A DNA stretch of 64,000 nt. Source: Pecten maximus. Lineage: Eukaryota. This document shows, in pieces, positions 180-61,335 of this stretch (its first letter is position 1; every line of letters begins with the position of its first letter). The stretch is taken from positions 12,710,001-12,774,000 of the forward strand of contig NC_047031.1 in NCBI RefSeq assembly GCF_902652985.1, given 5' to 3'. The notes below the pieces were generated by a model that did no database searches, was not told the DNA's origin, and worked only from the letters and a program-made list of their open reading frames with translations. A program made the translations under genes and the position numbers.

Positions 180-655
180 AAGAGACGGAATTTGCCTACA
201 CAAATGGTGTCATTCTTTCTCCACACAGAACCACGTTAAAAATTATCCCGACCCTACTTACTGCAAAGCACACAGTCGACATCTAAAATGTATTCGAAAA
301 AGAGCAAAGAGTCCCAATACTTAGATCCGAAGAACTGGCAGGCATCGAAAACGCAAAAGTTAGATGATTCTAAACAACCCTGTGTAAGTAGGGCAAGCCA
401 TCCTAGACCTTTCGAAGAGTGTAATGTATGAATTTTATTACAAATACCTCAAGTCTAAATATGGAGACGAAATTAAACTTTTGTTTACCGATATGGACAG
501 TTTTTGTTGTGGCGTTCAAACACAAGATATTTATTTAGATATGTTTAGAGATAAACAGTTTTTTTGATTTTTCCAACTGTCCCCCAAATAATTTTGTGTT
601 ATGACACTACAAACAAGAAAGTTCCAGATTACTTTAAAGATGAGACCGCTGGTGA
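180..655 (+). pseudogene. Polinton/Maverick-type protein-primed DNA polymerase B, C-terminal relic
   Basis: Translates to NNPV*VGQAILDLSKSVMYEFYYKYLKSKYGDEIKLLFTDMDSF...FDFSN...DTTNKKVPDYFKDE, the region around the pPolB YTDTDS motif; contains stops and frameshifts. Confidence 0.8.
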
Positions 656-1022
656 GCTGGAAAGGTTGCAGTTCTTCTAAACCAGAGAGGATGGAAACTA
701 GAGACGAATTTAACGTCTAAAGTATTTTTTTTTTCTTTTTTTCGTTTTTTCTTTTTTTGCAGAATTTATTTTATGTACAAGTTTATATGTCTTTCTCTTT
801 TTTATGCTTTTAACTTTACTTTATTTATATAAACACACTCATATTAGGACATGTATTTTCAATGTTTTTTATTATTTTTTTAATATATTTGTTTAGTTTT
901 CAAACGGTATAGTGTTAAACTTGAGAGTTTTTGTTTTTACTGTGCAGTATTCCTACATCCTTGTAATTTTCAAAATTATATATTTGTAAACATGACTACT
1001 TTAGCTTTAGTTTTTTTTTTTA

Positions 1023-1190
1023 ATGAAGGTTGATGTAACCAAATTTACGGCTGGGAATGGCGAAAAATATATACATATAAGCAGAAATGGACAGACTTTA
1101 AGTTTGCATTACGAAGAGTACGAGGAAGTATGCCTCGTTAAAGAGGCTATTGGTTTGCAACTTCATATCTATATATATATATATCTGGAC
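1023..1190 (+). CDS. Possible PC4-like small ssDNA-binding ORF of a Polinton-like element, disrupted downstream by the Tc1 insertion
   Basis: VDVTKFTAGNGEKYIHISRNGQTLSLHYEEY resembles the PC4 beta-strand/helix pattern; lies just downstream of the pPolB relic. Confidence 0.3.
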
Positions 1191-1264
1191 GAGGTAATGA
1201 AAAAAAAAACCCTATCCAAAAATATTTTAATGCATCATTTTGTTTGTGTTGATAATTTAATATA

Positions 1265-2804: not shown

Positions 2805-3699
2805 TATATATTCCATCTTCAGCCTGTGCCCGAGTTTACCAGAGCTACTTCGACTTGTACCGATTCGCCGGCATCTAAACCTGCATCACCGGTACCTATA
2901 CCTGCGCAGATTCCAGCTCAGAATGTACATTGTAACGTTACAATTGACACCTGTAGAGAGGATCCTGTATGGGTCTTATCCCTGTATAAACTTGGCAGAT
3001 AGAGGAGGGCCACCACCGTCCTATCTGGCATCGATACCACCCATACAAACATAACAAGCAGTAACTGCTCAATTCTACCTATGCAGTATTTAATTTTTTT
3101 CAAAACTAGTTCAAAACTAATTGGAAAACTATCTAAACCTTTAGAAATAGTTTCAATTTATTAACATATCGCATAGATAAGATTGGATGTTTTCTGCTAA
3201 ATGTATCGTAGATATACGAGGACGTATTATCAACCATGATAGAAAATGTATACCCACTAGTTTAATATCTTTTTTAGTATTTTTTGTAACATTAATTATA
3301 AACGCTTCCTTAATTTGTAAAATGTACAATATATAATCAAAAAGCTTGCATTTCGACAAGCATGTACAGCAATTAGTATGAAGTATTTTTAACATTAATT
3401 ATCGATAGGAAAACAATCAGTAAACTTGTAAAATGTACAATAAAAGCTTGTATTTCGACAAGGTGTGCTCGTAAACTTTATGATGGAGATCGAGGCAAGT
3501 TTTAGCAGTGGATTCAAGATATTGAGAAACGGGCACAAGTCACAAACAACCACGACAAAAAACATATTTTAGCTGTTCAATCTTCGACTGACCCTGTAAG
3601 CGAATACCTCCAAAGGTTTGTACGGGGGGGGGGGGGGGGGGGGGGGAGGGATGAAAATCCCAGGTGGGAAACTTTGAACGAAACAACTTACTTAATGTT

Positions 3700-4490
3700 T
3701 TGTGAATATTCAGGGTCCTTCTCATGCATTTGCCCTTTTAAAACAAATTCGTCAGCGCATTGACGAATCCATTCAACTGTTTGCGCAGCGTATCCTTTCA
3801 CTCGCGGAAAAGGTATATGAAGACACAGACTTATCAAAATCTTGTTATTGCCAGCAACTTTTTTGAGGATGGGTTGGAGTTACCCGATATTCGGTTAAAA
3901 GTTATGCGTGAGGAATTTACAGAATTTGACCGGGCTGTTGCTTGTCCCATGAGAGAAATAAACATTCGCCACGAATTCAATATTAGGTCACAATACACAC
4001 CAGACTTGCTTCCTAACACACACACACACAAAACCTTACACAAATACATTGCAAGAGATAAGTGGAGCCTGTGCAGATTGAAGCGTCGCGTCAGAGGTCT
4101 GTGAACACGTACACACGACACAATCATACACAAACAAACAAATCAAGGAGTCGGCCACCTGAATACCACAACTCTTATTATGCACACAAAAATTATCACA
4201 ACACTACCGTCACCAAACCACACTCTCCAAAATAATGCACAAGGACAATATCCACACAGGTGTACCAAGTCTACATGTCAATATAGTCCTCAAGGCCACA
4301 AGCAAACACGCGACAGACGTCAACAAACACAACACAATAACCGTTATGCAAACAACCATTTCAATACACGCTCAATCAAATCGACTGTCTTACATAACAA
4401 ACATTGTAGGTGGAACTCCTAATTCATGTCAAATTAAGGTAGGAAAACAAAAATATAGGAGTTTACTAGACAGTGGAGCTGATTGTAGCC
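3700..4490 (+). pseudogene. Degenerate Ty3/gypsy gag-protease fragment
   Basis: PSHAFALL..IRQ..ESIQLFAQRILSLAE and FFEDGL..PDIRLKVMRE (gag); GTPNSCQIKVGKQKYRSLLDSGAD (aspartic protease); homologous to gag at 23.7 kb and 52.6 kb. Confidence 0.8.
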
Positions 4491-5167
4491 AACAACAGAC
4501 GACAGCAAGACACAAGAATCATACAAAGCAGTACTAGAACAAATGTTGAATACACAAAACACTTTACAAAATAAACCAAATAAACTAAAGCAACATAACA
4601 TAATTTAAATTATATTCTTCTTACTAACTAAACATAGTATTTTCTTCCCTATTACAGAAACCACAGCAAGTCACAATGTTGTTTTATTTCATTGATCGTT
4701 GGTATTAAAATAAAAGAAAATGTTATTGTTCTACAAAATCAAGACGGATAATTACTTATTCCGTCAATTATCACGATTATGAAACTTCTTTTTTTTATTA
4801 TTTCTATGATGAAATCTTAAATGCTTATACACCAATAGAAGTTCCTAATACAACACAAACGATGCCCCAAAAATTCTGGAAGAAGCAATTATGCACATAC
4901 CAAATTTAAAACTTAAACTCAATATGCTTTCATTAAATTATCGTTCTCCAATCAAAATTTCGCCATCTCAACTTAGACAAATACTGTTAGGCATTCAAAA
5001 TTCACACTCACGTACACTTGCTCTACCTACTGATCCAAACAAAAATCTTTGCCGATACTATCAATATTATTTTTATTCCTGTACTTTTGAACGAAGATGA
5101 TATTCGTTCTTGTACCAACCCGTTTTATAATAAGTGTTAATTGACTTCCCCTTTTTACTCTTATTAT

Positions 5168-5458
5168 TTTGTTTATGTTTTACGGCCCATCGAAAACTAG
5201 GGTCATTTAGGGCCAAACAATATACTATCGTTTTTATTAGCTCACTTGTCCTAAAGTATTGAATGGATTTTCACAAAATTTGGTCAGGAACATCCTTGGG
5301 GGAAGGGGAACAGAGTTCGTATACATTTTTACTCTGAACCCCCAGGGGCCTGAGGGGCGGGGCCAAATAGGGGAAATAGCTACTTCGGAACGAATGAGTA
5401 GGATATGTGTGTCCGGTACGGAGCCGAGAGAGGACTATTTCCTCTCTACGATCCTTCT
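5168..5458 (-). mobile_element. LINE 3' end + HINE/satellite fragment + LINE ORF2 fragment patchwork
   Basis: 5168-5238 matches the LINE 3' end; 5239-5380 is the reverse complement of the element at 43.2-46.2 kb; 5387-5458 matches LINE 25557-25628. Confidence 0.85.
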
Positions 5459-5459
5459 G

Positions 5460-5590
5460 CGTTGCTGATAATGAACTAAACCACTATACGATCATGAACT
5501 TTAATAAAACTTTTAAGAAATGTCGTTTTGTACCAAACAGCTTTTCTGGTGCCGTGACCAGGATTTCCACGAAAACCACCACAATGACAA
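5460..5590 (+). mobile_element. Gypsy LTR end with tRNA-His primer binding site
   Basis: AATAAA followed by tggtgccgtgaccaggat at 5547, complementary to the tRNA-His 3' end; same PBS at 23357 and 53654-53670. Confidence 0.65.
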
Positions 5591-5720
5591 TTTTGTTTGT
5601 TTTACGGCCCATCGACAACTAGGGTCATTTAGGGCCAAACAATGGACCCATAGTCGAGTTTTGAACGAATAAGTGCCCTATAAAGGCGCAAGAGCATTTC
5701 ACGGTCCGCACCCCAGTCGG
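5591..5720 (-). mobile_element. Chimeric LINE piece (3' end joined to an internal RT segment) at the left edge of the viral island
   Basis: 5591-5643 is the LINE tail; 5644-5720 matches LINE 26626-26701. Confidence 0.85.
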
Positions 5721-5909
5721 CAAACAATTAGTTATTTGGTGGCGAAAAGTATATAAAGGGATAGACTAGTTATAAACTTGCTTATGGTTAACCTATCACC
5801 GCGGAACTCTTTTTTGGAATATTAGTTATACGTGTGTGAAACATGAAGAAGGCCATAAACTATCATCATCATTGAGGGACGATCAACTCAACAGACTAAA
5901 AAATCAGGT

Positions 5910-6278
5910 ATGTCTCCACCGATTATGAATGCTTTATCGGATAAGCGATCAAAGAAAAAAAATAATACTCTTAGCGAAGAGAGAAAAAAATTGAAACAAA
6001 AGCAAGTAAAGAAACGTAAGCAAGATACTAACATGTTCGAATACATCGAAATCAAAAAAACGTTGGGAACATACGAGGAACAGTGGAATGCGGAAAAGAA
6101 TAAATTAGACGATCTTAAATTTCAACACGAAACTAAGATGTTGCAGACGAATATCCAAGAGAGTAAAAAGAAAGTGGTTAACCTCGGAAGACTCATAAAA
6201 AGCTTAAAGACTCTCGCTAATCGTAAGGATCCAAATAAAGACGAAGGTTTGACTGTACATCAGGTAGCAGAAGAATAA
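5910..6278 (+). CDS. Basic coiled-coil hypothetical viral protein
   Basis: Intact 122-aa Lys-rich helical ORF; TATA (gtatataaag, ~5749) upstream and AATAAA at ~6326. Confidence 0.6.
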   Translation: MSPPIMNALSDKRSKKKNNTLSEERKKLKQKQVKKRKQDTNMFEYIEIKKTLGTYEEQWNAEKNKLDDLKFQHETKMLQTNIQESKKKVVNLGRLIKSLKTLANRKDPNKDEGLTVHQVAEE

Positions 6279-6359
6279 CGATTGTAAATATTTGTTTGTT
6301 TTATAATTGACAATTTTTAGATTGAAATAAATCTTTTTTGCATATATTCTTGAACAAAA

Positions 6360-7508
6360 ATGTTTTCTCTTGTTGTTGCCACGATTTTATCATTGGCTTC
6401 TGCCGAAACGGTACTTAGAGCTCAAGATGTGAGTAATTTCGATTCTATCAATATAGACGGTCAGAATGTATACGTTGGCGAATATTACATCAACGTCAAT
6501 GCCTTGACTTACGATTTTACGATAGTCAATGCGTCGAGTGTCGAGTATACGATAGGTACGAAGAGTGGTGTCGAAAGCGTACTGTTGGGTGAAGGCGCGA
6601 CATTTACCGTTCCTTCGAACGAATTGATTGACACGTTGTACGTAAAAACCGAAAACATGGACGATAATACGGTCGATTTGTGGTACATTCAAGCCATACG
6701 ATTTGTCTTGACTGTCGATCAATGCGAATCTGATATTCTAAAGTTTCAATTGACTTCTACACTGAAACAGTCGTATCCCATTATGGGTCGCGTCGAATTA
6801 TTGAATACCAATGATATAAATATGTGTTCTAGCACATCTTTGGTCGGTCCCATTTCTTTTAACAAACCGGCTTGCGGTATAGAATACGAAAAACCCGAAT
6901 TGGTGTTGTTTAGCACAAACGACGTATTTTTGACATTTCAAACTAGTCAGATGTTTAACGTGACTTGTATACAAGATTTCACTATGACTAGTGTAGATCA
7001 CGACGTTTCAGAAGTGACTGTCGAAGTCGACGAGATTCAAAACATTTACGACAGTGCGTATCTCGTAGATTTGAAAATTGTCGATCCTGAAACCGATTCG
7101 CTCGTGTCCGATGTATACGTAGGCGAAAGTGTAAAAATGGTTGTGAGTTTGGGATCGTTGTTTAGAAGAGATTTCGATATTAGAATAGACGAATGTAAAT
7201 TGAGCGATGTAACCATATACGAACACGGTACAGGTCCAACAACCGGATTGTTTACCGATTTTACAGAGACAACCGACGACGTGTTTGAATCAACATTCGA
7301 TGTATTTAGAGTGAATACGAATGCGAAAGCTTCTCAATTGGTTTACGAATGTACTGTAACCACTTGCTTGGGAGAGTGTCCTCCCATGGGCGGCGGTGGT
7401 GAATTGAGAAAGAAACGTAGTGTCGTGTCTTCTTTACTACCTTCCATCGAAGTGGGTCGAGTGAAATCATACAGAACTCTTGCGTTTTTGGAAAATGTCG
7501 AATACTAA
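6360..7508 (+). CDS. Secreted zona pellucida (ZP) module protein
   Basis: Signal peptide; four-Cys ZP-N pattern (CESD...C...ACGI...FNVTC); ZP-C (VYVGESVKMVV, IRIDEC, FDVFR, YECTVTTCLGECP) followed by furin site RKKR; no introns. Confidence 0.8.
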   Translation: MFSLVVATILSLASAETVLRAQDVSNFDSINIDGQNVYVGEYYINVNALTYDFTIVNASSVEYTIGTKSGVESVLLGEGATFTVPSNELIDTLYVKTENMDDNTVDLWYIQAIRFVLTVDQCESDILKFQLTSTLKQSYPIMGRVELLNTNDINMCSSTSLVGPISFNKPACGIEYEKPELVLFSTNDVFLTFQTSQMFNVTCIQDFTMTSVDHDVSEVTVEVDEIQNIYDSAYLVDLKIVDPETDSLVSDVYVGESVKMVVSLGSLFRRDFDIRIDECKLSDVTIYEHGTGPTTGLFTDFTETTDDVFESTFDVFRVNTNAKASQLVYECTVTTCLGECPPMGGGGELRKKRSVVSSLLPSIEVGRVKSYRTLAFLENVEY

Positions 7509-8031
7509 ATTGATAACCGCTGCGAAAAATTTAGAAAGCTCTATATCTATGATGTTTGCTCATTCGGATAGAAAAACCGTCGATAACATTGTAAAAAATG
7601 AACCGAACAATCTCGTCAATAGACAATTGAAACTCGATAGTATAATGTACACTCACGAGATAACCAATAGATTTGTGGAACAATTACACGAAAATGCCAA
7701 GTGTATGAAAAAGTTGGTGATGGACACGAAACGTTTATCTAGGATAAATCTGATAAACGACAAACAATCTGATGATATTGTAAACCGCGTCGAAAAAATC
7801 ACCGCAAATATTGATAATTCTCAACTATTGATGCAAGAAATAATTACTAGCGTTGATTATTTGAAGGTTCACGTCGACAGATCCATTGTGGATGATGACG
7901 AAGATGACGAAGATAGCGGAGATCTTGTTGTGAGAAAGAAAAAACCACCTCCACCGACAACTACGATTTTACCAGACGTACCCACGACATCTCCGTCATG
8001 TTCCGACACGTCTATGACTCATTATTCTTAG
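7495..8031 (+). CDS. Helical protein, possibly a divergent Snf7/ESCRT-III (CHMP4/6/7-like) homologue
   Basis: NRFVEQLHENAKCMKKL..IVNRVEKITANIDNSQLLMQEIITSVD..DDDEDDED..LPDVPT parallels Snf7 helices 3-5, the acidic tract and a MIM2-like LPxVP motif. Confidence 0.5.
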   Translation: MSNTKLITAAKNLESSISMMFAHSDRKTVDNIVKNEPNNLVNRQLKLDSIMYTHEITNRFVEQLHENAKCMKKLVMDTKRLSRINLINDKQSDDIVNRVEKITANIDNSQLLMQEIITSVDYLKVHVDRSIVDDDEDDEDSGDLVVRKKKPPPPTTTILPDVPTTSPSCSDTSMTHYS

Positions 8032-9836
8032 TGTGTACCATTACGGTCGTTGCTGCATTTTATAACGCAGACGACGGAGAATGGTTTAGACCGTGTTACC
8101 ACACCGGTAACGAGGCTGAACATGGATTGACTATTGTTACGCCGTACGTATCTGATATATACGATACCGGTAACATGACAGACCAACAATTTTTAGCTAC
8201 GAGTGGATTACCTGTCTGTCTGATAATGCTCCCCAGTAACGAAACGACGACCTTGGCAAAGTATAATTTTTACAGACTTTATCGCAACATGCCTACATTG
8301 TCTAGTGAAGAATACAGGAAACAGATGAGTGCTGTAGTTCGTCTGATGAATTATGATCTCGTGGAAGAAGGAGTGGCGTTTGGTTACAAGAAATGGTTCG
8401 GTAGACAAGATAATCGTGTAAAGGGTGGAGTTGTTCCACCGGAAGTGACAACGACCCTATATTATACGGACAAATACGAATTGTTTTTTTATTACGACGG
8501 TCTACCTAACGAGAAGGAAAGGAGAAAGATCGACCAAAAAGGTTGCATAGATGGTGGTGTGAGATACGGCGATTACAAGTGTCTGTTTTTAACAAAATTT
8601 TACGGTCATCCTTGGAACGACTGTGCTGGAAAAAACGGTGCCGAATTGTTCGACGTAGACGATACTGTGGTGTCTAGTTTGGAAGACTATTTTAGAATAA
8701 ACAGAAATGAGACTAAGGATCTATTTGTGGTGGGACAAGTGCGCGGCGATGGTGGTCACATAGGAGGCTACAATAGAATATTTCGTAAGGGTGTTAAAAA
8801 CAGAAATTATTACAACGGATATACCGTCGGTGATCCATTGACCATGTCGTTTCACGAATCTAGTCCGGTGCTTCACGACTACGATTTAAGTATACCTCGT
8901 TACGTGGTTTGTACAGAGACTGCATATAACGAGCGTGCCATGGTTAAATGCTCACAAGATAGGAAATACAGTTTCGAGCACGATTGGTGTAGACAATTCA
9001 TGTTTCCTGATTCGGAATACGAAAAGATGCTCGAATCTATACGAAACGCCGATAGAATTAAAAACTCGAACTTTACACATCTCGTATACGTTGTGAATGA
9101 AGAACCGTCTACAACTACAACAATTCCTACAACGACCACAACGACGACCACAACAATTCCAACGACTACAAAAATTCCAACAACGACGACAATAATTCCA
9201 ACAACAACAACCACAACAATTCCCACAACGACAACGACGACAACAATTCCTACAACGACGACAACGACGACCACAACAATTCCAACGACAACAATAATTC
9301 CTACAACGAATACCTCCACAATAATTCCTACAACGAATACCTCCACAATAATTCCTACAACGAATACCTCCACAATAATTCCTACAACAACGACCTCCAC
9401 AATAATTCCTACATTTACAACAATTCCTACAACGACCACCACGACTACGACAATTCCTACAACAACGACCACCACGACTACACCTACAACAACGACCACC
9501 ACGACGACTACTACGTTAATGAAATCCACGACGACGTCGATTATTGCAAATTCTTTTACAGACTATTTTCTGCATTGGGGTAATAGAGCATTAACGACAT
9601 CCACACCTACGACAACAGAAAATTTGACCGAAAGTGGTGAATTTATGTCTATGGCAGATACGCGATCGGATGATTATATTAGACGATTCGTGTTAATTAC
9701 GGCTGGAATAACGGCTGGCTGTTTAGTGTTTTTCATCGCTGTGACATTTGTCGGCATATGGAGTTGTAAAAAATGGAATACGAATTATTGCGATCAAGAC
9801 AAGACTGTAAAATATTCAGGCGTTTCGAGAATTTGA
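7998..9836 (+). CDS. Type I membrane glycoprotein: C-type-lectin-like domain + Thr-rich mucin stalk + TM
   Basis: Signal peptide; CIDGGVRYGDYKCLF...WNDCAGKNGAELF...YVVC CTLD-like pattern; (IPTTTT)n stalk at 9110-9515; TM FVLITAGITAGCLVFFIAVTFVGIW. Confidence 0.8.
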   Translation: MFRHVYDSLFLVCTITVVAAFYNADDGEWFRPCYHTGNEAEHGLTIVTPYVSDIYDTGNMTDQQFLATSGLPVCLIMLPSNETTTLAKYNFYRLYRNMPTLSSEEYRKQMSAVVRLMNYDLVEEGVAFGYKKWFGRQDNRVKGGVVPPEVTTTLYYTDKYELFFYYDGLPNEKERRKIDQKGCIDGGVRYGDYKCLFLTKFYGHPWNDCAGKNGAELFDVDDTVVSSLEDYFRINRNETKDLFVVGQVRGDGGHIGGYNRIFRKGVKNRNYYNGYTVGDPLTMSFHESSPVLHDYDLSIPRYVVCTETAYNERAMVKCSQDRKYSFEHDWCRQFMFPDSEYEKMLESIRNADRIKNSNFTHLVYVVNEEPSTTTTIPTTTTTTTTTIPTTTKIPTTTTIIPTTTTTTIPTTTTTTTIPTTTTTTTTTIPTTTIIPTTNTSTIIPTTNTSTIIPTTNTSTIIPTTTTSTIIPTFTTIPTTTTTTTTIPTTTTTTTTPTTTTTTTTTTLMKSTTTSIIANSFTDYFLHWGNRALTTSTPTTTENLTESGEFMSMADTRSDDYIRRFVLITAGITAGCLVFFIAVTFVGIWSCKKWNTNYCDQDKTVKYSGVSRI

Positions 9837-10381
9837 TGTTGTTGAACGATTTATGTCGTGCCGTGCCTAAAGAAGTGGTGGCGAGTGTTTGTGGTGGATT
9901 GTACGAACATATCAAAGATGTTACGACGAGGCGGCTACCGTCGACATTTTTTCAATTTTTAAAACATTGTGCTTTATTGATGTTGAAAAATACACTAGAA
10001 GAAAATTTTGATGATGTGACAACTGTTAATGATGTGATTAATTTGAACAATCTCGAAATAGATCGTTATTGGAACAATGTCGATTCGTTTAAGAATGCAG
10101 ACGAGGCAAGATGCATCATAAACGATTTGTTAATCAAACAATGTAGTATTTTATCGAGAAAATTGTACGACAATATTGGTGATAATCATCCTCGGTGTAG
10201 TGCGTGTATCATTGATGCAATCACTATGGGTACCGGTAGACAAGATGATATTTGTGATAATATGATGAAACGTAAGAGTACTTCTTTTACCGATACGTCT
10301 GTATACGATAACACTTGTTATCATGTCTTACTTAAATCTTGTGGTAAATACGATAAATTAATCAAGAAAAATATGCAATGA
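9836..10381 (+). CDS. Cys-rich hypothetical viral protein
   Basis: Intact ORF; likely start ATG overlaps the previous stop (TGATG, 9834-9838); alternative start at 9773. Confidence 0.65.
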   Translation: MLLNDLCRAVPKEVVASVCGGLYEHIKDVTTRRLPSTFFQFLKHCALLMLKNTLEENFDDVTTVNDVINLNNLEIDRYWNNVDSFKNADEARCIINDLLIKQCSILSRKLYDNIGDNHPRCSACIIDAITMGTGRQDDICDNMMKRKSTSFTDTSVYDNTCYHVLLKSCGKYDKLIKKNMQ

Positions 10382-10601
10382 CTCTTGCCCTCCTCTTTTT
10401 TCCTCCTCTGGTTAGACAATTTTTGGTTGTCTTTTTATATAAAAAAAATATATATATCGTTGCAAGCCGTTTTTTATGTCTTGAGCAAAGTTTTGTTCGT
10501 TCTTTTTGCTGCCAATCGTGGCTGTAATTAGTACTGGGTCTTGATGATTCTTACGGCTGATAGCCAAGGCGTTTTCTGTCTCACACTTATGTTGTACATT
10601 C

Positions 10602-13300: not shown

Positions 13301-13331
13301 ATAAAACAAAACAAACAAAAAAGGATGTTTT

Positions 13332-48317: not shown

Positions 48318-48388
48318 CTTCCCTGATGATTCTAAAACAACAATAATATATATTTGTCATTCAATAACTATTTACAAATATTCAAGGC

Positions 48389-51300
48389 CTATAGCAGTTC
48401 AGAAATTGTCCTTAACAACTTCTTAACTGATTTACTGCTTGGACTTCTACGTTTCTTACGTTTTAACTGACGTTTTTGACCTACATGATCGATAGATATT
48501 AATTCCTCCTCGTCAGGCTCTGATGAACCGTCATTACTGGAATTCCCATTCAATTGATCATTAGACGTTGAGTCTGTATCATTACTTTTCTCATTATCAC
48601 TATTTATTCTGGCATTACGTCGTCTAATTCTTTTTGCTAATTCCATTAATGGGATATCTTCTTCCTCAGAAGAAGTATCTCGTTCCTTACGGAACCTCTT
48701 AGCTATTTTACTCAGTGGTGTATCGGAGTCAGAATCTGAAGATGCCTCTTTGCTGCTATTGTCACTGTCTTTGTCTGGTACTGCATATGTTGATTGTCTT
48801 AATAATCTATCTCTCCCGGAAGGTATCTCCCAATCATCAATATTTGCTAATCGTATATGTTCCGCGTGTGCTTTAGTCGTGCGCCCGTCAAGTTGATTCT
48901 TAATTATAAATGTCACTGGTGTCGTTTGTTCAGTAATTCTAAAATAAGGTCGCCATTTCCCTTGTAACTTGTTTTTACGCAAATGATTCTTATAAAAGAC
49001 GGGATCACCTACTTTAAATTCTAGTGGTTTGCTATTTTGATCAGCATGTTTTGCCTGGCGTTTTTTTTTTTAGCTTTCTTCAAATGTCTATGTACTAAAC
49101 CAAATGACTTGTGTTGCTGTTCGAGGGCTATTGTATGTTGTTCTTCCCCCATGTATTTTCGTCTTGGGTTTTAATAATGTATCTACCGGAAGTACGACAT
49201 CCCTGTTGTATAACAGAAAGAACGGAGATAATTTTGATGATTCACTTATATTAAACCTTACTGCAGCCAACGTTTGATTCAAGTAGAGGTCCCAAGTCGT
49301 AGATTCATTATCTAATTTCTTAGCCAAAGCATCATGTAAGGTTCTATGGAATCGTTTTTCACTTTGGCATTACTCTGTGGGTGATAGGAGGTCTTAACGT
49401 GACTAATGTTTAGTGTTTCTAACACATGTTTCACTACTCTGTTAACATTTTCTGTCCCATTGTCCGTAATTATTTGTAGTTGTGCCCCGTATCTTGGGAA
49501 TATTTCTTCTATCAATAAATGGGCAATGTTTTCAGCTGATTTGTCAGGTACAGCGAAGGCTTCCGGCCAACCACTGTATACATCTACAAAACTGATGATG
49601 TATTTATTTCCCGATAATGTTTTTGGATAAGGACCCGATAGATCTAGTCCGATTTTTGCAAAGGGATAAGGTGGTATGTCTGTTTCCTGTAACGGAGGCT
49701 TTCTCCTCTTTAAACTACGTGTTTGGCAAGTAACACAACTACTTACATAATCATATAATTGCTTGTAAAGGTTTGGCCAAAAATATTTCTGTTTAATTGA
49801 GTCAAATGTTTTATCTATACCCATTTGACCATTGTCCTCGTGGTATTGTGTCACTACCTTCCATCTAACATGCTCAGGTACATACAGTCTCAGTACAGGT
49901 TCATCGTCTGGGTCAGATATATAATATACTTCATCCTCAACGACCATATAATGCCTTTGTACATGACTTGTAGCTTTTCCTTCCTCTAGTTGCTGTTTAA
50001 TCTCTAATATCCCTTTATCTTTCATTTGTTCTGTCAAAATGTCAAATTCCTGCCAATTCATTGTAGGTTTCTCTGGTGTGTCAGGGGTGTCTAGTGTACT
50101 ACTTGCAAATTCTTTAGGATTAAATTGATTAGAATTCAGTGTACTAATTTCAAAAGCCTTGTCACTAATGGCTGGTTCATAATCTTTGTCTTCTCTATCC
50201 GATACTTCAGTACTTTGTGGAGTACGCGACAATAAATCTGCGCAACTGTTTTCTGGACCTGCTATATATTCAATCTTACAGTTATAACCCGCTATGCTTA
50301 GCGCCCAAAGTTGTATCTTTTTATTCGGCATTGGGGAATCTAACAAGTATTTCAAAGGTTTGTGATAAGTTTTTATGATGAACTCAGCCCCGTGTAAATA
50401 ATGATCTAATTTTTGTAATGCGTAGTGAATCGCAAATGCTTCTTTCTCTACTGTAGCTCATGTAGTCTGCGTGTTTGATAATCTGTGAGATAAATAGTAT
50501 ACTGGTCTTTCTTCACCATCACAAGTTTGAGTAAGACAGGCACCTACACATGTGTCGCTAGTATCGGTATATAAAGTATACCGCTTATTAACATCTGGAT
50601 ATGCCAGGACAGGTACTACCGTCAAACTCTCTTTCAAGAAATTAAAGGCCTCTTCGCACTCAGGGGTCCATTTAAATTTCGCGAATTTCTTTGTCAAATT
50701 TATCAATGGCTGTGCTATTTTAGAGAAATTTGGTATAAACCGTCGATAATAACTACCCATACCTATAAATCCACGTACTTCTCTTACTGTCTTTGGCGCT
50801 GTCATTGATCGTATAGCTTTGACTTTATCAGGATCTGGTTTAACTCCTACCCTATCTATTACAAACCCTAAGTACTTTGTCTCTGTTTGGGCGAAGTAAC
50901 ATTTCTTTAACTGAAGTTTGAGATCATGCTTTCTTAACCTTTCAAATGTCTGTTGTATGTGACTCAAATGTTCTGAAATGAAGGGCGAGAATATCAGAAT
51001 ATCATCTAAATAAGTAATTGCAAAACCTTCTAACCCCTGCAATACCCTGGACATTAATTCTTGGAACACCGCTGGAGCATTAGCTAATCCAAATGGCATC
51101 ACATTGAATTCAAATAATCCCCTATGGCATGAAAAACTTGTCAATTCTTTCGATTTTGGATCCATTGCAACTTGCCAATATCCCAATTTCAAATCTAATG
51201 TTGTAAAATATTTTGCTTTGCCTAATAACGCCAAAATACCACCTATAAGTGGTAAGGGATATGAATTGATTTTTGTTATCTTATTTAACTGCCTAAAATC

Positions 51301-52350
51301 TACACAAAATCTTTTTGACCCATCTTTTTTATCAACTATTACCACTGGAAAACTCCAGGGTGATGTTGACCTACTGATAACCTTAGCTTCAAGCATTTCA
51401 TCTACAGCTTTATCAATAACGTTCCTTTTGTAAAGCGGGGTTCTATAGGGTCTCATTTTTATTGGAGGGTGGTTACCCGTGTCAATCTTCATTTTCACTG
51501 TGTTTGCACAACCTAAATCAGAATCAGTTTTAGCAAAGATATCTTGATTTCTTTTGACCAAATTGACAAAGGCTGAATGATGTTCAGTTGTCACTTGTAT
51601 TTCCTTCTCAAAATCGTCTGACGTAACACTACTGATGTCTTTTGTTACCTTGGTCTGATCTATTGTCACTACATTTTGTTCCGGTACTCCCGAAACCTTA
51701 CCTAGTGTACATCCTCTCCTCAGTTTTATTGTCTTATTGGTGTTATTAACAATCATTACTGGGAGTCTGAGAATATTGTCGGCTTTAGCTATAGAATTCG
51801 TGACCGTTACACCTGGTTCATTATACACATAATAATGTAGTAATGTAATAATGTAGTGTTTTTAAGATATTCTCTGTCCTTGACCTTACCTTCACATACT
51901 GTGGCGGTCTGTGGTTTTAAAATAACTTCCTTGTGAACTCTAACAAGTGAAGAAATATGAATATCTTCTTCTAATGGTACTGGTACATAGGCTTTACGTA
52001 ATCTGAAACAACGTAAATCAAAATAAACTCTAACACCATTGTCTTGTAACCAGTCTTTGCCTAAAATGATATTTCTGTTCATGTTCTTAACAACAATAAA
52101 CTGATGTGTCAGTGTTTCATTACCCACTCGAAAGTCTAGAGTTGTCGCCCCGTCAATAGTCAATGAGCTACCGTTTACAGATTGTAAGTAAACGTTGTGT
52201 TTTTTTCAGCTTCGGAGGATCTTTTAACATCCGATACACCCTGCTATGAATAAGTGACACTTCTGCTCCTGAATCTACTAGAGCTCTAAATTTTTTGTTT
52301 ATTTATCTTAATTAGAATTGAATTAGGATTTCCTGCCAAATTTATTGTAA
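48389..52350 (-). pseudogene. pol: pol (PR-RT-RNase H-IN) with several frameshifts and stops
   Basis: LVDSGAE, RFCVDFR, MPFGL, YLDD, ADLLSR, H-x-C-C region, GLDLSGP, TDNG, GPY/F-like KWRPYF. Confidence 0.93.
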
Positions 52351-52407
52351 ATTTACGTTTCTTCTTTTCTTTACTCCTGGCATCGGCCTTATCATGACAG
52401 GAGTTTC

Positions 52408-53293
52408 TTAGTTTTTTCGACCACTACTTTGTAACCGAGGACAATCGCGTCTAATATGGGGACCCCCACAATGCCAACATTATAATCCTGGCCTACCCTG
52501 TTGCTCATTACCCTGCCTTTGATAGGCATTTACTTGCCTTGGCGCCCCTGTCCTCTTATTTTGTTTTGCTATATGGCCCTGTTTCCCGCATTTGTAGCAA
52601 TTCTTATTCCTATAGTGATCTACATTGTATTTCCATGGGCTCATCCATTCTTTCTGTACTATCAGAATGTCGTAGTGTTAAAGAATGTAAAGCGAACCTA
52701 CGCCAAAGGTTTTGTTCTCTTCTGGCTATTTCTAGCGCGGCTTTCAAAGTTTCTGGACTCTCGCGCATCAGTTTCATTCTTACAGCCGAATTACCCAATC
52801 CCTTTATAAAGTATCCGACCAATTGTCTTTGTATTAATTCATTTTTTAGATGATTACCAAATGAATCGCGCGCGATGTCAGTGAGGCGCTCCGCATATAC
52901 CTCAACATTTTCATTATGCATTTGTTTGATGGTAGCCAGAACATCCAATGCGTGGTGTAGATCCACGATTTCGGCGAACCTTAACTGTAATTCAGTTTTA
53001 AAGTTTTCCCACTTAACCCCCTCATGCTCTTCCAAATATCGCTGCATAAAATCAGCAACCGACCCTCGGGCTGATTGTAATGCGACATATTGGCGCATTT
53101 ATTCAGGTACTTGGGTAGAAACCGAGTACCTTTCTACGGCCTTCACCCATTGCTTGAATTCTTTAGCATCCCCCTCAAAAGGCTTTATATTGGTCCCCGC
53201 CCCTAGAATAGCTACCGAGGCCCCAAACACCCCAACTTGGTTACTAAGAGTTTCAAATACTTTTTTAATCGTCGCTACCGCTGGTTCGACCAT
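52408..53293 (-). pseudogene. gag: gag with zinc knuckles (one internal stop and frameshift)
   Basis: IKPFEGDAKEFKQW, ADFMQRYL, CYKCGKQGH, CWHCGGPH..RDC. Confidence 0.88.
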
Positions 53294-54350
53294 GATTATT
53301 AGGTATAGTAAGTTAAGACGATCAAAACTACTTACCCCGAAATTGGTCTGAATTTACAGTAGAAAACCGTCGTCGCTACCGCTGTCCTCTGCCCCAGCTG
53401 GGATGACGTTCAACGGTGTGTTGTTATTGGACGTCTGCAGCTCTGGCTCGGCTCTCTTTATGTCGGTAAATGTCACAATTGGCCTAACCACACCTATTGG
53501 CTTCTGTTTTCCTTTTTTGTCGATACTTGGGTGTTTTTTTTCTAAATTCATGAGCCGTTGCAACATCAAAAGTGCCTCTGTAGCGGCTGTCCCGGGGTAA
53601 TTCTGCCAATGACCTTGCCGATTCCCAATTGCGACCTTCAGCCATCTAAATAACCCTGGTCACGGCACCAAAAATAAGGCATGTAACACTTCAGGTGTTT
53701 ACATGTACTTATATAAAAGAAAAGTTCAACCGCAGGTTCTTTAAGCTAACTTCTTTAATTAGATGGGTCATGGCGTTTTAACATCTTTTCCCCCCAGGCT
53801 GGTCAACTGGCAATAACTTCTAATATGAGGCTTTAGTTACGTGGCCAAAATTGAGTGCTAAGTACTACATCTCGGTACTGTCATCGAGATGTTGTACTGT
53901 CTGCGTCCCTGGTCCGCACTGCACTGTCCGTAGTCGTGGACATTGTCCCTTTTATAGTAGGTTGTTATGAAACCACTTATGAAACCATCACGTTTTCAAC
54001 ACGTGAATTAACTTTTACATAAGTTAAGGAATGCTGACCTTGGTCCAAAATAGATGGTCATCCTGACTTAATAACGTTTGCCTAACGTGGCAGGACGTGC
54101 CTTATCTCTGAGAACACTATTTCAACATATGTAAACATTCAGTCCGCCTTTGACCAACCTGTAGTACATGTATATACATATCATAAAATATCTATGGCAA
54201 TTACCTTTGACCAACCTGTAGTATATACATATCATAAAATATCTATGGCAATTATAATTAATAATTATAATTAACAACATTTATCAATTACGTAATAATA
54301 TTACGTCATCAAGTCCATTGTGTTACATCCCTTCAACATGTAATGACTCT

Positions 54351-55577: not shown

Positions 55578-56060
55578 TTACACTAGAGGAGGTGGGCGCT
55601 TTGCGATACTGGCTCGAGTCTTTGGATCTAACTTGTCCAAAGTCACCCATATGGCATATTTGGCAGGTTCCCCTCTATGATGAATTAGGTATTGATAACC
55701 CTGTTTGGAATGTCTGCGCGCCAAAACACGTTGAACTCGACAGAATCCTGATCTACTTCCGGATAATGTTAACTCAGCAGGATCAATATGATGGACTTCG
55801 CGAAACCGAATGGGTTTTCGATTAGTTCTTTGAGGTCGAGATCTATTTGCCTGGTTTTCCTTATTGACATTTAAATCGACATCAACAGGCCTTCGTACAC
55901 TCTCAGACTGCCGATGAGAGCTTTGATGCTTCACAGATAAGTCCTGGACAAAACGTGGTATCTGCGAAGGTCGCGTTGGTCGCGTCGCGCACTTAGATGT
56001 GTCTGTTCCAGACGATGATTTGGAAGAATCCTCGGTGATATTCCTAAAGATAGGGCCTGA
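55578..56060 (-). pseudogene. Gypsy integrase C-terminus with chromodomain-like tail
   Basis: RSRPQRTNRKPIRF followed by RVQRVLARR...YQYLIHHRGEPAKYAIWV. Confidence 0.6.
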
Positions 56061-56099
56061 TTGATGTGAACGCGTACAAGTTTCAAAAGGGGTTTCTCG

Positions 56100-56335
56100 T
56101 TGACGTTCTATTTATATCACAAAGTTCACATAATCTATCCGTACATATATCTATTTTACCATTTTTAACCAACTTTTTTTATCATAATGATCTAAATATA
56201 CAATACGAATGCTTTTAAAAATGACAAATTTTATCTGATTTTAACTTTAAAAATAAAACATGATAGTATATTGTTTGGCCCTAAATGACCCTAGTTGTCG
56301 ATGGGCCGTAAAACATAAACAAACAAACAAAACAA
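56100..56335 (+). mobile_element. LINE 3' end
   Basis: Matches the LINE 3' UTR and tail. Confidence 0.9.
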
Positions 56336-56749
56336 ATTCTCCTTCTAGAAAGTCGGCAATCTAATTTATCTTCACCCTGATTTTCCTGTCCTGTTTTACT
56401 GGAATTTTCTGAGGAAGTTTTTCATTTTTCTTAGCAACAAAATCAAACTTCCCTTTAAGAATAATATTTTCTTTAAGTAACTTATCTTTTTCTGCTTCAG
56501 CCTTTCTCAACTCTTCATCCAACGCATGTCTATTCAGAGAACAATCTAATTTGAAATGAAGTTTTTCTAGAGATTTCAAATATTTATTATATTGCCTTCC
56601 ACCCTTTTTCAATTCTCTCTTACCTTTGATCCTAAGTTTGTATAGCTCTTTTTTGAGCTGATTCTCATGTTTTTGGTTGAAGAGAAATTTCAAACTCAAG
56701 TGATCCTCTAAGCTAGATTTATAGCTATCAAAACAGTTAGTTAAACATT

Positions 56750-57337
56750 CAATATTAAAATACCATATACAGATTTCAAACCTATAATTAATTCTGCCAT
56801 TCAGAGTAAATGGCAGCAACGCTGGTCTCTCGAGACGAGCAACAAACTTTTTAAAGTACAACCAAAACTTAAAACATCAAAACCAAGTCGGAAGGATCGT
56901 AGAGAGGAAATAGTCCTCTCTCGCCTCCGTACCGGGCACACATATCCTACTCATTCGTTCCTTTTGAAACGAGAGGATCCACCGGTGTGTTATGCATGTG
57001 ATGCTTAATTCACAGTGGAACATTTTTTAATAGAATGTTCCGATTTCAAGCACATTCGTGATAAATACTTTCGAGTCCCGGATATGAAAACCCTTTTCAG
57101 TTCCGTGGATTCGAAAACAATATTTAGCTACTTGAAAGAAATCGATCTATTTTATAGACTTTGATGTCTTTTACGTTACGTCATAATGATCTAAATATAC
57201 AATACGGATGCTTTTAAAAATGACAAATTTTATCTGATTTTAACTTACAAAATAAAACCTGTTAGTATATTGTTTGGCCCTAAATGACCCTAGTTGTCGA
57301 TGGGCCGTAAAACATAAACAAACAAACAAACAAACAA
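56750..57337 (+). mobile_element. LINE 3' portion
   Basis: Matches 34256-34940 with a small deletion. Confidence 0.92.
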
Positions 57338-58384
57338 AAGTTAAACATTCAGTCCAGTAGTTCTCTTTCAATATTGAAAAAAATAGACTTCTGTATAAGC
57401 ATAGTGAAGCAGTACAATAAATCACTCAAACATAAATTAGTGACAAAGACGACGGAAATCGCTCACGTGGTGTTCAAATTTGATGACAAACCTCTGTTTG
57501 ATAAGAGCCTAATATCAACATCATAATAATATAGTTATAAACTTTGAGACATTACAAAAGGTTCCAGTTAAGGAATTTCGGATAATCTTGGGCATTTCCT
57601 GGTGAGATTACAAAAGCCATCACCAAACTAAAACCACGGCACATTACTGATTCTTCAACATGATCTGGGAAAACAACGAAATCGAAACCCATAGGCGGAA
57701 TGTTGTTGTTTTGATGAAGTAGTTGTCCCCATGGCAATTAATAACTCTATAATCCCTGGCCAAGGACAGGGCCAAGGTCTCTCCTAGTGTTGATGCTGTA
57801 GACTTTCCTTCTCCGTGTAAGTTTTTTTCTCTCTATAGGAATCCTTAGGTAAATCAATGAATCTTTGTGTCCGCAAAGAGCTTCCTTCAATTGGACCTTA
57901 AGTAATAAAAGCATTTTATAATTGAAATTGTAGATTGTCGAAATAAAAAGCATAAATTTTTTTTCATTTTTTTACATATATTTATCAGGTTTTTCTTGTT
58001 AGTTACTATAAGACAATATTTGAGAGAAGCGTAAAAAAACAAACATGGATTACTCATTTTTTCTCATCAACAAGTGTTTTTAAATTACCAAATCTAGTAT
58101 ATCTATTATACAGTATCCATGTGCAACAAATTCAGCATGTTAGATAAAGGCTGATAATAACCAAAATCAAGGTTTCTCAGAAACAGCATTGCTGAAGTGT
58201 ATAATGTGATGCAAAAAATTTACCATTAATATTGATGTAGTTACAATGAAACCTGTTAAATCTAACACAATTGGGGAGTGACTGTTTTGGTCGGAATAGA
58301 CAGGGTGTCGGAAAGATCAGGTGTTGGATTAGACAGGATTTGCTGTACTTATTAGGATGACAATGAAACCCTTTAATATATATA

Positions 58385-60000
58385 CCTGCACTAGTCTTTT
58401 TAAATGCCACTGGCACTGCTCAGGCTCTGCTGATTGTAAAGGAACTCTTGATCTGCTGACTGAAAATGGATAAATAAAATGTGTATTATAATCAATGAAC
58501 TCAATCACAGGATAGTACCCTCACTGCAACATACAAATCAGAAAGGGGAATATACTGAAAATGAAAAACAATACCCAAGAAATTGGGCAAGCAGATTCCA
58601 GTATACTACAGAGCTCCTATATGTGGGACATATAAAGACATTTTCAGCAATGAAATTTACAATGGAACCTCATTATTTCAAAGTCCACAGGACCCAGATA
58701 AAACCTCAAGTTAACAGAGTATTCAAGTTAGGTGAGGTTGATTGTTTAGTTTGTCTAGACCAACGGAATTCTTTGAATTAAACAGGGTTATATAGTCATA
58801 TGACATGAGTTAACAAAGTTCAACTGTATACTGCAGATACATGGTTCTCAAAGTTCTTCTCAGCATTACATCACATGACATGTAGACTAAGTAGAAGAGG
58901 CTGGTACTTCTTATTTAATACAGCCATATTAGTTTAACCTTAATCTTGAAGTCACTACACATTATATTCCCTTGATATGTTTATTTAATATCCTGTCAAA
59001 TAGGTGTATAATTTAAACCATAAGATATGTATGTCTATATATATATATAGAAAGGAGGAACTTAGACTGACAAGCATGGTTTCAATGAATATATATTACC
59101 TGTTGAGCAGGATTCTCTTGGTAATTGCAGATTAAGCATGTCACTGAAATATAACAAACTCAAATAAACTGACAGAAGAAATATGAATTAGTAAACAGTT
59201 AACTTATTAATCAGTGAGTATAAATACAGAATATTAGAAAGGCCTCGACACACAATGGTACATCTACATGTACAAATGTCAAGTTCATTTTATTGGCAAT
59301 GTGCACAGTTCCCTTTAATATCACATTATTTTATTTAAATGAAACATTTAAGAGTTGAATAGGAAAAATGGTAAATGGCCCCAGTCTTTCCTTACCACTG
59401 TAAGTATCATAAGTATACAAATGAACATTTTCCCGTTAAAAAAACTACAAACAAATAATTACAAGGTGGTGTATATGTATCTATCTCCCATAGCGCTGCA
59501 CAATTATATCCAGTGTGCTCAAAAAGTTTCATTCCACACTTGCAAAATTCCGAAGGTGGTGGACTAGGGCATTTGCTGTATGCCAATCTCATGTCAGGCA
59601 GGGATATACTTTTCCTGAATGGCTGCTGTTGCTGTACACATGGAACATGCGTAATATGTGCCTTTGTTGGTGACGATGCATACGAGTGTCTGTTGCCAAT
59701 ATCAGAACACGTTAACTCATATGTATATTTGTTTTGTGGATCTGAATATATCGGGTTCATAAATCCAGGTCCCGAGAAAGTAGATCTATGCCTTCCCCCA
59801 AAAACATACGAGGCAGAACATGGCATATCGTGCGTAAAGTCCGACACCCTACTATCGCTAGTCCTACAGGATTCCAACTTAGAAGAAGAGTCGATTGACT
59901 GAATTTGTTTCGACTTAAACTGCTCCTCCGATTTCAAAGTAGTCTGATCGAAAAAGGAAAATGGCAATGTTGAGTTTGATCGCGACATATTATATAAAAT
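58385..60000 (-). other. Probable spliced host transcript (large Ser-rich ORF exon plus two small exons)
   Basis: ORF 59407-59988; donor near 59395; AG/GT-bounded exons at ~59100-59144 and ~58386-58459. Confidence 0.4.
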
Positions 60001-60179
60001 GTATAAAATAAGACTATACACGTGGTCTTTAATTGGGGTTAAATTTCCGTCAGCACCGTAACACAACACGCGTGGTCAGTAAAATTCGATATTGAAAACG
60101 AATTTAGTTCATTTCACAATGTTCAGTCACATATACAATTCAATGCATTAGTAAAACACACAATAATGAATATGTTTTT

Positions 60180-61335
60180 AAAGCTTATCGGTAGTTACTG
60201 ACCTTTCTAGGTCTCAACTGGTGATCTTTTGCAGCCATCTTCTCTAAAAATAATTCCGCGGGTACTGTTTTCTAACTTCTACCGGAGAGTTCATATCAAA
60301 GGGAGGTAACTCAATCTATGACAAAAAGTTCGCCACATGTGTTCCAGACCCTACACCACCTTCTTATAGCTGGACACCTGTTATGTCCTTGTGTACGAGC
60401 ACAACGAGTACATGTACCCCTTTCACTGTGTGAATGTTGATTATAGTGTTTACTATGTGACTGTCTTTGGGCTTGCTGGTAATGTGTTGACGGGTTGCTT
60501 TTCTTTTTTAATTGTCTCCCCTTTCTCACCTCTTCAACATGTTTGTGACCCCTTGGTCCTTAATCTGTGACTTAACAAGCTCCGCCTGCCTAGCTGTTTG
60601 GATAGCTGTTTCCAATGTCAAATCAGCTTTCATCTGTTATTTCTCAGATATGTTCCGTTCAGCAATTCCTATTACTATTCTGTCCCTAACAAACTCGTCC
60701 TGATTAGTGAATTCATAATATTCAGCTATTTTATGCAACGCCCGGACAAATTCTTCTACCGATTCGCCGGGTGCCCGACACCTCTGATGAAACCGGGCCC
60801 TCTCATGTATGTTTCTCTTTGGAATAAAATAATTAGTGAATTTTTCCATCACTTAAACAAAATAAACCAAACCAAACCATCACTTTCTCATATTTCGCCT
60901 CATCGCCGGCGACATCGAACACTAAAGTCTAAAAGACATGCTCTGCTTGACTGCCAATAGCGTAAATCAATGCACTTATCTGTACCGCATCCTCATCCTT
61001 GTGCAGTTTCGTTGCGGTCCGATAGCGCGAGAAGCTCGTGCTCCAATCCTGCCAACCGGTAAGACGAATTTCTCTGGGGCCTGGAACTTCGCCATCTGTA
61101 CTAATCGATGTTAACAGCTCCTCTAAATCACCAGGAATTCGATGAATTTAATGGTTCTAACTTCTGACACCATGTTTCGTATTAAATACCACGAGAAGAT
61201 ATGTACTGTCTAAACTCCACATGTTTATTAACCGCCATCTTGACCGAAACCCCTACACAACACTTAGTGACGTAATATGCAATGTACACATAAAACTCAA
61301 GGGAGATAACTCTGTAAGTTGTGACGCACTTAACA
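60180..61335 (-). mobile_element. Internally deleted Mag-like gypsy element (short LTR, tRNA-Leu PBS, gag)
   Basis: PBS tggtgtcagaagt (61160-61172); MAKFQAPE..., YFIPKRNIHERARF, CTRCA..H.RCPA. Confidence 0.8.

Follow-up and report, generated by a model that had tools for sequence, protein, structure and literature searches.

Organization of the locus

The window analysed here, a stretch of 64,000 nucleotides from Pecten maximus, carries transposon remnants, a viral insert and two assembly gaps (16380–16879 and 33744–34243), the second of which coincides with a switch in element polarity and is presumed to be the centre of the locus. At the left edge, the + strand holds a protein-primed PolB (pPolB, Polinton-type) scrap (364–564), 68% identical to a pPolB piece at 41431–41610, a recent Tc1/mariner element (1257–2811) with an open 355-aa transposase at 1513–2580 (DDE_3 and HTH_Tnp_Tc3_2 matches) and copies 98–100% identical elsewhere, and decayed gypsy gag, protease and env scraps (3500–5094), recognised by tblastn to env, by blastn to gypsy copies of another hot spot and by ORF reading. 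On the − strand, 5168–5721 comprises two I-type LINE 3′ tails (5168–5238 and 5592–5643), fragments of LINE RT/RNase H and 136 bp from a 156-bp repeat. Beyond a + strand block of endogenous large-DNA-virus origin, with approximate limits 5720–21800, lie the 3′ half of the Tc1 at 1257–2811 (22020–22902, +, 99.7% identical) and gypsy copy A (22893–27816, +), with gag at 23882–24433 (Ty3_capsid), protease and the start of pol, which is broken by three LINE insertions. The − strand carries here a 35-nt LINE tail within the gypsy gag (24354–24389), with a 15-bp target-site duplication, and a tail at 24849–25050 adjoining a 2.3-kb 5′-truncated LINE with its tail at 25107 (24849–27452; RVT_1 and RNase_H). 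An 88-nt tail (28230–28312, −), with a 12-bp target-site duplication, is the final outward tail of the left arm, and + strand LTR-like pieces (29.2–29.4 and 29.7–30.1 kb) with gypsy gag/env-type remnants (29198–33743) reach the gap.

The right arm opens with the 3′ part and tail of a LINE (34244–34937, +), its first outward tail, followed by two + tails (36564–36774 and 38184–38352) flanking an env remnant (37.1–38.0 kb, −). A decayed pPolB (Polinton-type) element (38992–42254, −) was recognised from its ORFs and from a DNA_pol_B_2 match below the cut-off (E 6e-4). Next to it, a single env-bearing gypsy (42246–54271, −; RVT_1, rve, Integrase_H2C2, Ty3_capsid and Baculo_F-like matches) has paired LTR-like ends 89–98% alike and a nested element of 156-bp units at 43.2–46.3 kb. 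The chromodomain end of another LTR element (55581–56111, −; Chromo, E 1e-4) precedes the last two LINE tails of the arm (56097–56327 and 56751–57326, +), and a gag-like remnant (60640–61147, −) was identified by eye, with no Pfam match. Outside the last tail lies a young gypsy copy, B (62615–64000, +), whose co-oriented twin, 98.3% identical, is found another 17.6 kb to the right.

The LINE belongs to the I group (APE-RT-RNase H), an assignment made to the group and not to the exact clade (I, Nimb or Ingi): ORF2 contains APE, RT and RNase H, and copies show 5′ truncation, a short-repeat tail and short target-site duplications. Roughly 300 dispersed copies of it exist in the genome. Such duplications, of 8–15 bp and at no fixed target, were found in 26 of 104 LINE tails. 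A LINE of the R1/R2/TRAS kind with a fixed target was rejected, the 26 duplications being unrelated in sequence and the 3′ flanks varied.

The viral block encloses the first of the two gaps (16380–16879), and its ORFs are dense and intronless, 11 of 14 being on + and three on the opposite strand. The PolB of the block (11054–13300) ends at about residue 750, versus 1170–1250 in its relatives, and other ORFs are ZP/VERL-like, mucin-like or caspase-like. Palindromic AT-rich repeats occur at 14.0 and 21.2–21.8 kb; the block is single copy in the assembly and has a CpG o/e of 1.39. The closest PolBs are 36–47% identical, and 40 proteins match at E ≤ 1e-30. Among 26 representative relatives looked up, two bear an organism name, both from Elysia sea-slug assemblies, and none a virus name; no match to a named member of Malacoherpesviridae, Nimaviridae, Iridoviridae or other families emerged. 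Judged by its polymerase sequence, the 16-kb insert is best placed in an unnamed large-DNA-virus polymerase clade. No capsid or terminase gene was recognised within the block and no relatives were found in viral or metagenome contigs, while searches of the PDB returned only distant PolBs and those of the Atlas only generic PolB and caspase clusters. Four sequencing runs (three guessed to be RNA and one of unspecified kind, two of them likely one data set) cover 30, 30, 14 and 11 of 30 bins over 5.7–21 kb; their contigs are mostly 99% alike, of low depth and free of splice joints, and are not counted as evidence.

Opposed polarity of LINEs and other elements

The initial annotation had assigned the gypsy, pPolB and Tc1 pieces left of the 33.7-kb gap to +, along with the majority of the viral genes, and six LINE tails to −, with gypsy, env and pPolB pieces on − and all LINE tails on + to the right, and both halves of this description hold when elements are counted instead of fragments. 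To the left of the gap every LINE 3′ tail, six in all (5168, 5592, 24354, 24849, 25107 and 28230), is on −, and to its right every one (34684, 36564, 38184/38319, 56097 and 57183) is on +. Non-LINE elements lie on + in 7/7 cases in the left arm (pPolB scrap, Tc1, gypsy/env scraps, viral block, half Tc1, gypsy A copy and the gypsy/env copy at the gap) and on − in five of six in the right arm (env remnant, pPolB element, env-bearing gypsy, chromodomain end and the gag remnant seen by eye). The lone exception, already singled out in that annotation, is the + gypsy at 62.6–64.7 kb, which sits beyond the last LINE tail. With the gap as split point, Fisher tests gave p=0.002 for LINE tails and p=0.005 for non-LINE elements. 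Many apparent pieces collapse into single elements in this count, the 42.2–54.3 kb interval being one gypsy and the virus one event, whereas LINE tails represent separate insertions, because four left-arm tails, two of them within the window, have target-site duplications. The 156-bp-unit element flips here too, although with the reverse of the polarity that it usually has at the other loci, and was rejected as a polarity marker for its inconsistency between loci.

Young insertions are enriched over the genome, as expected of a piRNA cluster: the exact 32-nt LINE tail motif occurs six times in the window against 0.031 expected from 441 copies per 918 Mb, and coding transposon matches are dense in the locus and sparse in its flanks. 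Two further − tails precede the window, at distances of 10.9 and 4.3 kb, and the start of the locus is placed about 11 kb before the window's left edge; the rest of the 464 kb scanned contained two full LINE tails (both +, 172–186 kb left) and one weak 37-nt match. The biased stretch thus runs from about −11 to +61 kb (~70 kb), and 400 kb of flank are mixed in orientation. Loss of the bias on inclusion of the flanks had been proposed as a refutation; the flanks are indeed mixed, and the outcome therefore delimits the locus and does not refute the bias.

Recurrence of the layout across the genome

Using an unbiased list of LINE copies from which duplicates and the window had been removed, 39 of the 56 pairs of neighbours within 100 kb were co-oriented (p=0.005), and opposed neighbours at up to 100 kb were arranged as − then + in 16 cases and as + then − in one (p=3e-4); pairs more than 500 kb apart split 22 versus 32. 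Ten other hot spots (nine plus one) switch from − to + without an N gap, C17:7.41–7.49 Mb being a gap-free twin of the window. LINE tails point outward in 76 of 77 cases at the ten loci and the window together. At the ten loci, LTR elements are inward in 17/17 cases (13/13 by hand count without four that lie inside tail-free centres), as are Polinton (4/4), DDE (3/3) and Helitron (2/2) elements, and DIRS (5/7), Harbinger (3/6), Crypton (2/3) and Penelope (2/3) show no clear bias. Four fetched loci were kept out of these tallies, namely C8 (gapped and multi-unit) and C9, C19 and C6 (mostly duplicated copies), and the C14 stretch was counted without its initial 52 kb, which are mixed. The ten loci were chosen as hot spots from lists, several of them for a visible −/+ switch, and the position of each centre was itself derived from the tails; hence the 16:1 and 39/56 neighbour counts constitute the only unbiased test. 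Chance acting on non-independent fragments is excluded by the genome-wide counts as the cause.

The polarity of SINEs is that of the LINE, with 108 of 146 outward within loci, and SINEs in the flanks showed no run structure and no polarity domains. None of the LINE inserts measuring 70 nt or less contains the AATAAA located 75 nt from the end, and 13/13 of them were outward. Because the SINE shares the polarity and these short inserts obey it, LINE polarity likely arises at insertion.

Discussion

The polarity, enrichment, recurrence and independent insertions established here are best read as placing the window among the many two-armed transposon traps of this genome. The initial annotation had proposed a piRNA-cluster-like locus of the flamenco type with one opposed LINE family. 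The trap layout fits that proposal; its one-strand form does not, since the Gypsy bias does not extend over the whole locus and switches at the centre both here and at ten gap-free loci. A sharp switch between mirror-image arms, typical of bidirectional clusters, is what element orientation displays, in the window inside an unbridged gap.

On balance we lean towards a trap whose arms are transcribed outward from the centre as piRNA precursor, with LTR, Polinton, Tc1 and viral genes inward and the LINE outward. Under this model, each arm would likely be read from a central promoter, which in the window may be hidden in the gap. Gypsy, pPolB, Tc1 and viral insertions, which on this model run antisense to the precursor, would yield silencing piRNAs without ending the transcript and would hence be retained. 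LINE and SINE, likely carried by related machinery, may enter open germ-line loci often and in precursor sense, through integration, for instance by nicking of the transcribed strand, rather than through later selection; inserts of 35–70 nt obeying the rule argue for integration. Human L1 is mostly antisense in transcribed regions, contrary to the sense entry needed here.

Indicators of transcription direction gave little signal. Residual skew on the outward strand is about 0, whereas dynein gene bodies had G>C and T>A in 12/12 stretches. Private C>T/G>A substitutions numbered 54/44 in outward SINEs and 19/8 in inward ones, a non-significant lean opposite to outward transcription; 120 kb of dynein genes contained only three SINE scraps, too few for comparison. 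The centres show no CpG peak, the CpG profile and CpG decay are null, and no shared sequence, motif or 9-mers were found among them.

Several features of these loci have counterparts in known piRNA systems. Unistrand flamenco and flam-like clusters of Drosophila are described as likewise dense in co-oriented, antisense Gypsy, env-bearing copies included, and detectable from DNA alone (PMC10643416, PMC10495008). In the account given of D. simulans flamenco, R1 LINEs lie in sense, opposed as the LINE is here, but in tandem (PMC10495008), whereas ours are dispersed 5′-truncated insertions; there are here, moreover, two mirror-image arms, a bias shared by Polinton, Tc1 and a DNA virus, and at least ten further loci. 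Mammalian bidirectional pachytene clusters are portrayed with a similar central strand switch and family-specific polarity, but as conserved and driven by MYB-factor promoters (PMC4105748), while the arms described here are almost all repeat-derived and share no centre motif. Bidirectional mapping is also on record for pearl oyster and marmoset. Of the clusters described for oyster and snail, those of oyster are presented as enriched in young Gypsy and Polinton, as here (PMC6128900), and planarian seed clusters as antisense to LTR elements, a content resembling that proposed here (bioRxiv 2026.01.28.702291). The available text of these sources reports no two-armed layout with LINE opposed to LTR, and within open-access coverage the literature contained no such report for molluscs, a matter on which supplementary cluster strand tables may bear.

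Replication offers a different, rather unlikely, account, in which the hot spots are no piRNA sources and owe their polarity to replication forks: the LINE would cut the lagging-strand template, the centre would be a fixed fork-termination point, and inward genes would survive as co-directional with forks. The polarity of very short inserts and SINEs, pointing to an integration mechanism, agrees with such an origin, as does the lack of a promoter mark at the centres. L1 is described as cleaving the lagging-strand template (PMC7426637), in which case outward LINEs would need a terminus at the centre. The switches are nonetheless sharp, a few kb wide in several loci, flanking SINEs lack polarity domains, and decayed, silent gypsy and viral pieces would give head-on selection little to act on. 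The fork bias of L1 is modest, and the outward bias of LINE tails is far stronger than that.

We give slightly less credit to inward transcription of the arms, for example from trapped LTRs or outer promoters, with LINE and SINE antisense like L1 in mammalian genes, piRNAs hitting the active LINE, and gypsy, Polinton and virus in sense. An AATAAA near the end of the LINE sense strand would suit this arrangement, although inserts devoid of it are equally biased; the weak substitution lean and the family-specific sense and antisense biases described for marmoset clusters are compatible with it as well. It would, however, require two units to meet head-to-head at at least ten loci with no shared cause for the centre, and sense gypsy conflicts with what is described for fly and planarian clusters.

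A mis-oriented contig had been put forward beside a bidirectional arrangement to explain the flip, and the latter is now strongly favoured. Reversal of the 41-kb contig right of the gap (34244–75662) in the scaffold, which would make the locus one-stranded, is improbable. The switch does fall exactly at the gap, whose right edge lies inside a young repeat, and no contig from four DNA runs, made on two samples of which one may be the source, bridges 33744–34243; in one sample, two short-read runs gave contigs that lead from 33743 back to 30220 without a change of strand, and a search of the scallop's own genome from the left gap edge found no continuation. The 156-bp element, reversed from its usual polarity in both arms, is unexplained either way. 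Reversal would, on the other hand, set ~18 kb of tail-free DNA (57.3–75.7 kb) in the middle of a hot spot, and the gypsy B twins flanking the 75.7-kb gap are co-oriented, a weak argument against it. Since the same switch occurs at ten gap-free loci and prevails 16:1 genome-wide, misassembly is an unlikely cause of the flip. Chance, to which single elements split into many pieces and duplicated neighbours elsewhere could contribute, is highly implausible given that the pattern survives element counting and duplicate removal and that target-site duplications are separate.

Returning to the outward-transcribed trap, a bolder and more tentative extension is that bidirectional piRNA clusters are what the I-type LINE homes to, and that its integration there is almost exclusively in precursor sense, so that it might exploit the trap without arming it, or else supply slicing sites that start piRNA phasing. 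The same loci could preserve sequence of gypsy, Polinton and large DNA viruses in antisense, as an immune memory passed to offspring, and LINE tails would then map the clusters of this bivalve and their promoters from DNA alone. The layout suggests a way for a retrotransposon to sit in clusters unsilenced, and the near-absolute opposition of LINE/SINE to LTR/Polinton bears on whether orientation in piRNA clusters originates in integration or selection. It also allows two-armed trap loci to be recognised, as a class spread over a mollusc genome, by a signature in the DNA alone, and supplies centres for testing, the gap-free ones among them lying at C17:7.448–7.457, C18:32.224–32.228, C14:7.156–7.169 and C17:28.842–28.866 Mb.

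Viral DNA amid LTR elements in a cluster-like locus has a parallel in the Aedes piRNA clusters, whose endogenous viral elements are described as RNA-virus fragments (PMC8048955), whereas the scallop insert spans 16 kb and several genes of a large DNA virus, with three of 14 ORFs on the opposite strand. Antiviral memory may reside at this locus, and the block offers a way of testing, in animals that are farmed, whether small-RNA memory of a DNA virus is inherited, as well as a record of a virus lineage without a name.

Results and discussion

The window covers 12,710,001-12,774,000 of C17, one of the chromosome-sized contigs of the 918-Mb assembly, and contains two 500-N gaps starting at 16380 and 33744; from the second gap rightward, the contig runs to a further gap at window coordinate 75663. 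The LINE, an I-type family with RT and RNase H domains in the window, an APE domain seen in a complete copy outside it and (AAAC)n tails at its 3' ends, has six tails on the minus strand left of the gap at 33744-34243 and five on the plus strand right of it. Counted as elements, with the viral block entered as a single event, the non-LINE elements run the other way, 7/7 being plus on the left and 5/6 minus on the right (Fisher p=0.005). The strand bias proposed in the initial annotation is thereby confirmed, as is its exception, the gypsy at 62.6 kb, which lies past the last LINE tail and is matched at 80 kb by a 98.3% identical twin. Two further minus tails lie up to 11 kb left of the window, and the remainder of the 464 kb holds two full tails and one weak match; a 32-nt tail motif occurs in six exact copies in the window versus 0.031 expected. 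The bias holds within a locus of about -11 to +61 kb, but not in the flanks, where LTR elements and SINEs have mixed orientation.

The same minus-to-plus switch was found in gap-free sequence in 10 of the 14 other LINE-dense hot spots examined, one of the ten, C17:7.41-7.49 Mb, being the window's gap-free counterpart. These ten loci were chosen partly for their visible pattern and their centres were fitted, so that the following tallies describe a layout and constitute no independent test; they leave out C8 (gapped, multi-unit), C9, C19, C6 (mostly duplicates) and the opening 52 kb of the C14 stretch, where orientations are mixed. Together with the window, the ten loci have 76/77 LINE tails pointing outward, away from the centre; so do all 13 tails of 70 nt or less, which lack the AATAAA found 75 nt from the end. 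Other LINE matches in the ten loci, many of them parts of the same family, are outward in 19/22 cases. Inward orientation was counted for LTR elements (17/17, a count not fitted on the same data as the centres, or 13/13 by hand count without four elements in tail-free centres), Polinton (4/4), DDE (3/3), Helitron (2/2), DIRS (5/7), Harbinger (3/6), Crypton (2/3) and Penelope (2/3). At the C8 hot spot LINEs are mostly plus, and Polinton and most DNA elements minus.

Genome-wide, LINE strands are balanced (216 plus vs 225 minus). The neighbour test drew on 222 listed positions, namely all of C1-C8, part of C9 and about half of C10-C19, the last picked via flank letters independently of strand; nine duplicates and four copies from the window locus were dropped beforehand. 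Neighbours within 100 kb shared a strand in 39/56 pairs, and opposed pairs were minus then plus in 16 cases and plus then minus in one (p=3e-4), as compared with 16 vs 5 within 200 kb and, for distances above 500 kb, 22 vs 32. The polarity is genuine and extends genome-wide. C13 and C17 carry 73 of the 122 listed copies of C10-C19, and trap-like loci are therefore concentrated there.

Target-site duplications of 8-15 bp and unrelated sequence accompany 26/104 tails, which are therefore separate insertions; a fixed target was rejected on the same grounds. An abundant 540-bp SINE with a tail similar to that of the LINE is outward in 108/146 copies in the loci. It is nearly missing from the window locus (-6 to 61 kb) and common in the flanks and other hot spots, an example being 9126-9664 of flanking stretch L031 (window coordinates 73126-73664). 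Selection can hardly account for dozens of short inserts that are redundant with one another, so the orientation and enrichment of LINE and SINE were likely set during integration. The inward classes would instead point to selection tied to a transcribed strand, because an integration bias common to symmetric integrases and the viral block is hard to envisage. LINE copies in stretches L125-L126, L136 and L145 carry short inverted segments at the 5' end, such as twin priming would produce; at C19:13.37-13.38 Mb (L096-L097) one insertion appears as a perfect inverted duplicate inside a 13-bp satellite, possibly an assembly artefact.

The viral block at about 5.7-21.8 kb (5720-21800), with densely packed, intronless ORFs (11/14 plus), is an endogenous piece of a large DNA virus. 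Its CpG o/e is 1.39 vs 0.63 in the flanks; it is single-copy in the assembly and also occurs in DNA runs from two samples, of which one may be the source. Its PolB stops near residue 750, relatives being 1170-1250 long. The closest PolBs are 36-47% identical to it. A PolB profile search returned 40 proteins at E<=1e-30; none of the 26 representatives looked up bore a virus name, and the two with an organism name were both Elysia assemblies. One relative has its PolB on a 213-kb contig (P0003), which may represent a complete viral genome. The block also contains a caspase-like ORF, a ZP/VERL-like ORF and palindromic AT-rich repeats; by eye, and without Pfam match, we take ORFs 9770, 17089 and 19382 to resemble death-fold domains and ORF 13332 an F-box.

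By content and polarity the window locus is a candidate piRNA cluster. Excerpts of earlier reports describe oyster clusters with an abundance of young Gypsy and Polinton elements (PMC6128900), bidirectional mapping in pearl oyster (PMC6342924) and marmoset (PMC4105748), and R1 LINEs in sense within D. simulans flamenco (PMC10495008; general background in parts of PMC11067994, PMC12479628 and PMC10030826). Flamenco is one-strand, whereas the window locus has two arms of opposite polarity; the piRNA-cluster-like locus first proposed keeps its likeness in content and polarity but does not fit flamenco's single strand. A bidirectional piRNA-cluster-like trap centred in the gap is the most likely reading, somewhat more probable than not. 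Outward transcription is preferred, since one central promoter would account for a centre and since Gypsy lies antisense in flam-like loci (PMC10643416, in part) and in planarian seed clusters (bioRxiv 2026.01.28.702291, in part).

A replication-polarity hot spot, suggested by the L1 fork rule (excerpt of PMC7426637), seems rather unlikely. Inward transcription of the arms, towards which private substitutions lean non-significantly, is slightly less probable still. In 12/12 stretches of dynein gene bodies the sense strand shows G>C and T>A; no such skew was seen in the arms, which offer little unmasked DNA, nor was a CpG peak or shared motif found at the centres. A mis-oriented contig right of the gap, the other origin initially considered for the flip, is improbable: no short-read contig bridges the gap, but the ten gap-free switches and the 16:1 pairs favour a bidirectional arrangement.

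Short-read contigs connect the gap's left edge (33743) back to 30220 and read depth is 2-3x higher at 32.0-33.5 kb, so a collapsed tandem duplication inside the gap is likely. An element of 156-bp units (window 43179-46300 and 5244-5379; stretches L030-L029), presumably Helentron-like, has a polarity in other loci that is reversed in both arms of the window locus; SINEs and 156-bp repeats of this kind occur in bivalves, which, with the roughly 19 chromosome-sized contigs of the assembly, suggests a bivalve host. Two unannotated minus-strand ORFs, one of 222 aa (59407-60075) and one coiled-coil (56361-56750), lack a convincing Pfam match, and the C8 hot spot holds an ORF similar by eye to the latter. 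Directly right of the gap, a CpG-rich 211-bp tandem array (35247-36495; units 98% alike) is the assembled non-LINE sequence nearest the presumed centre.
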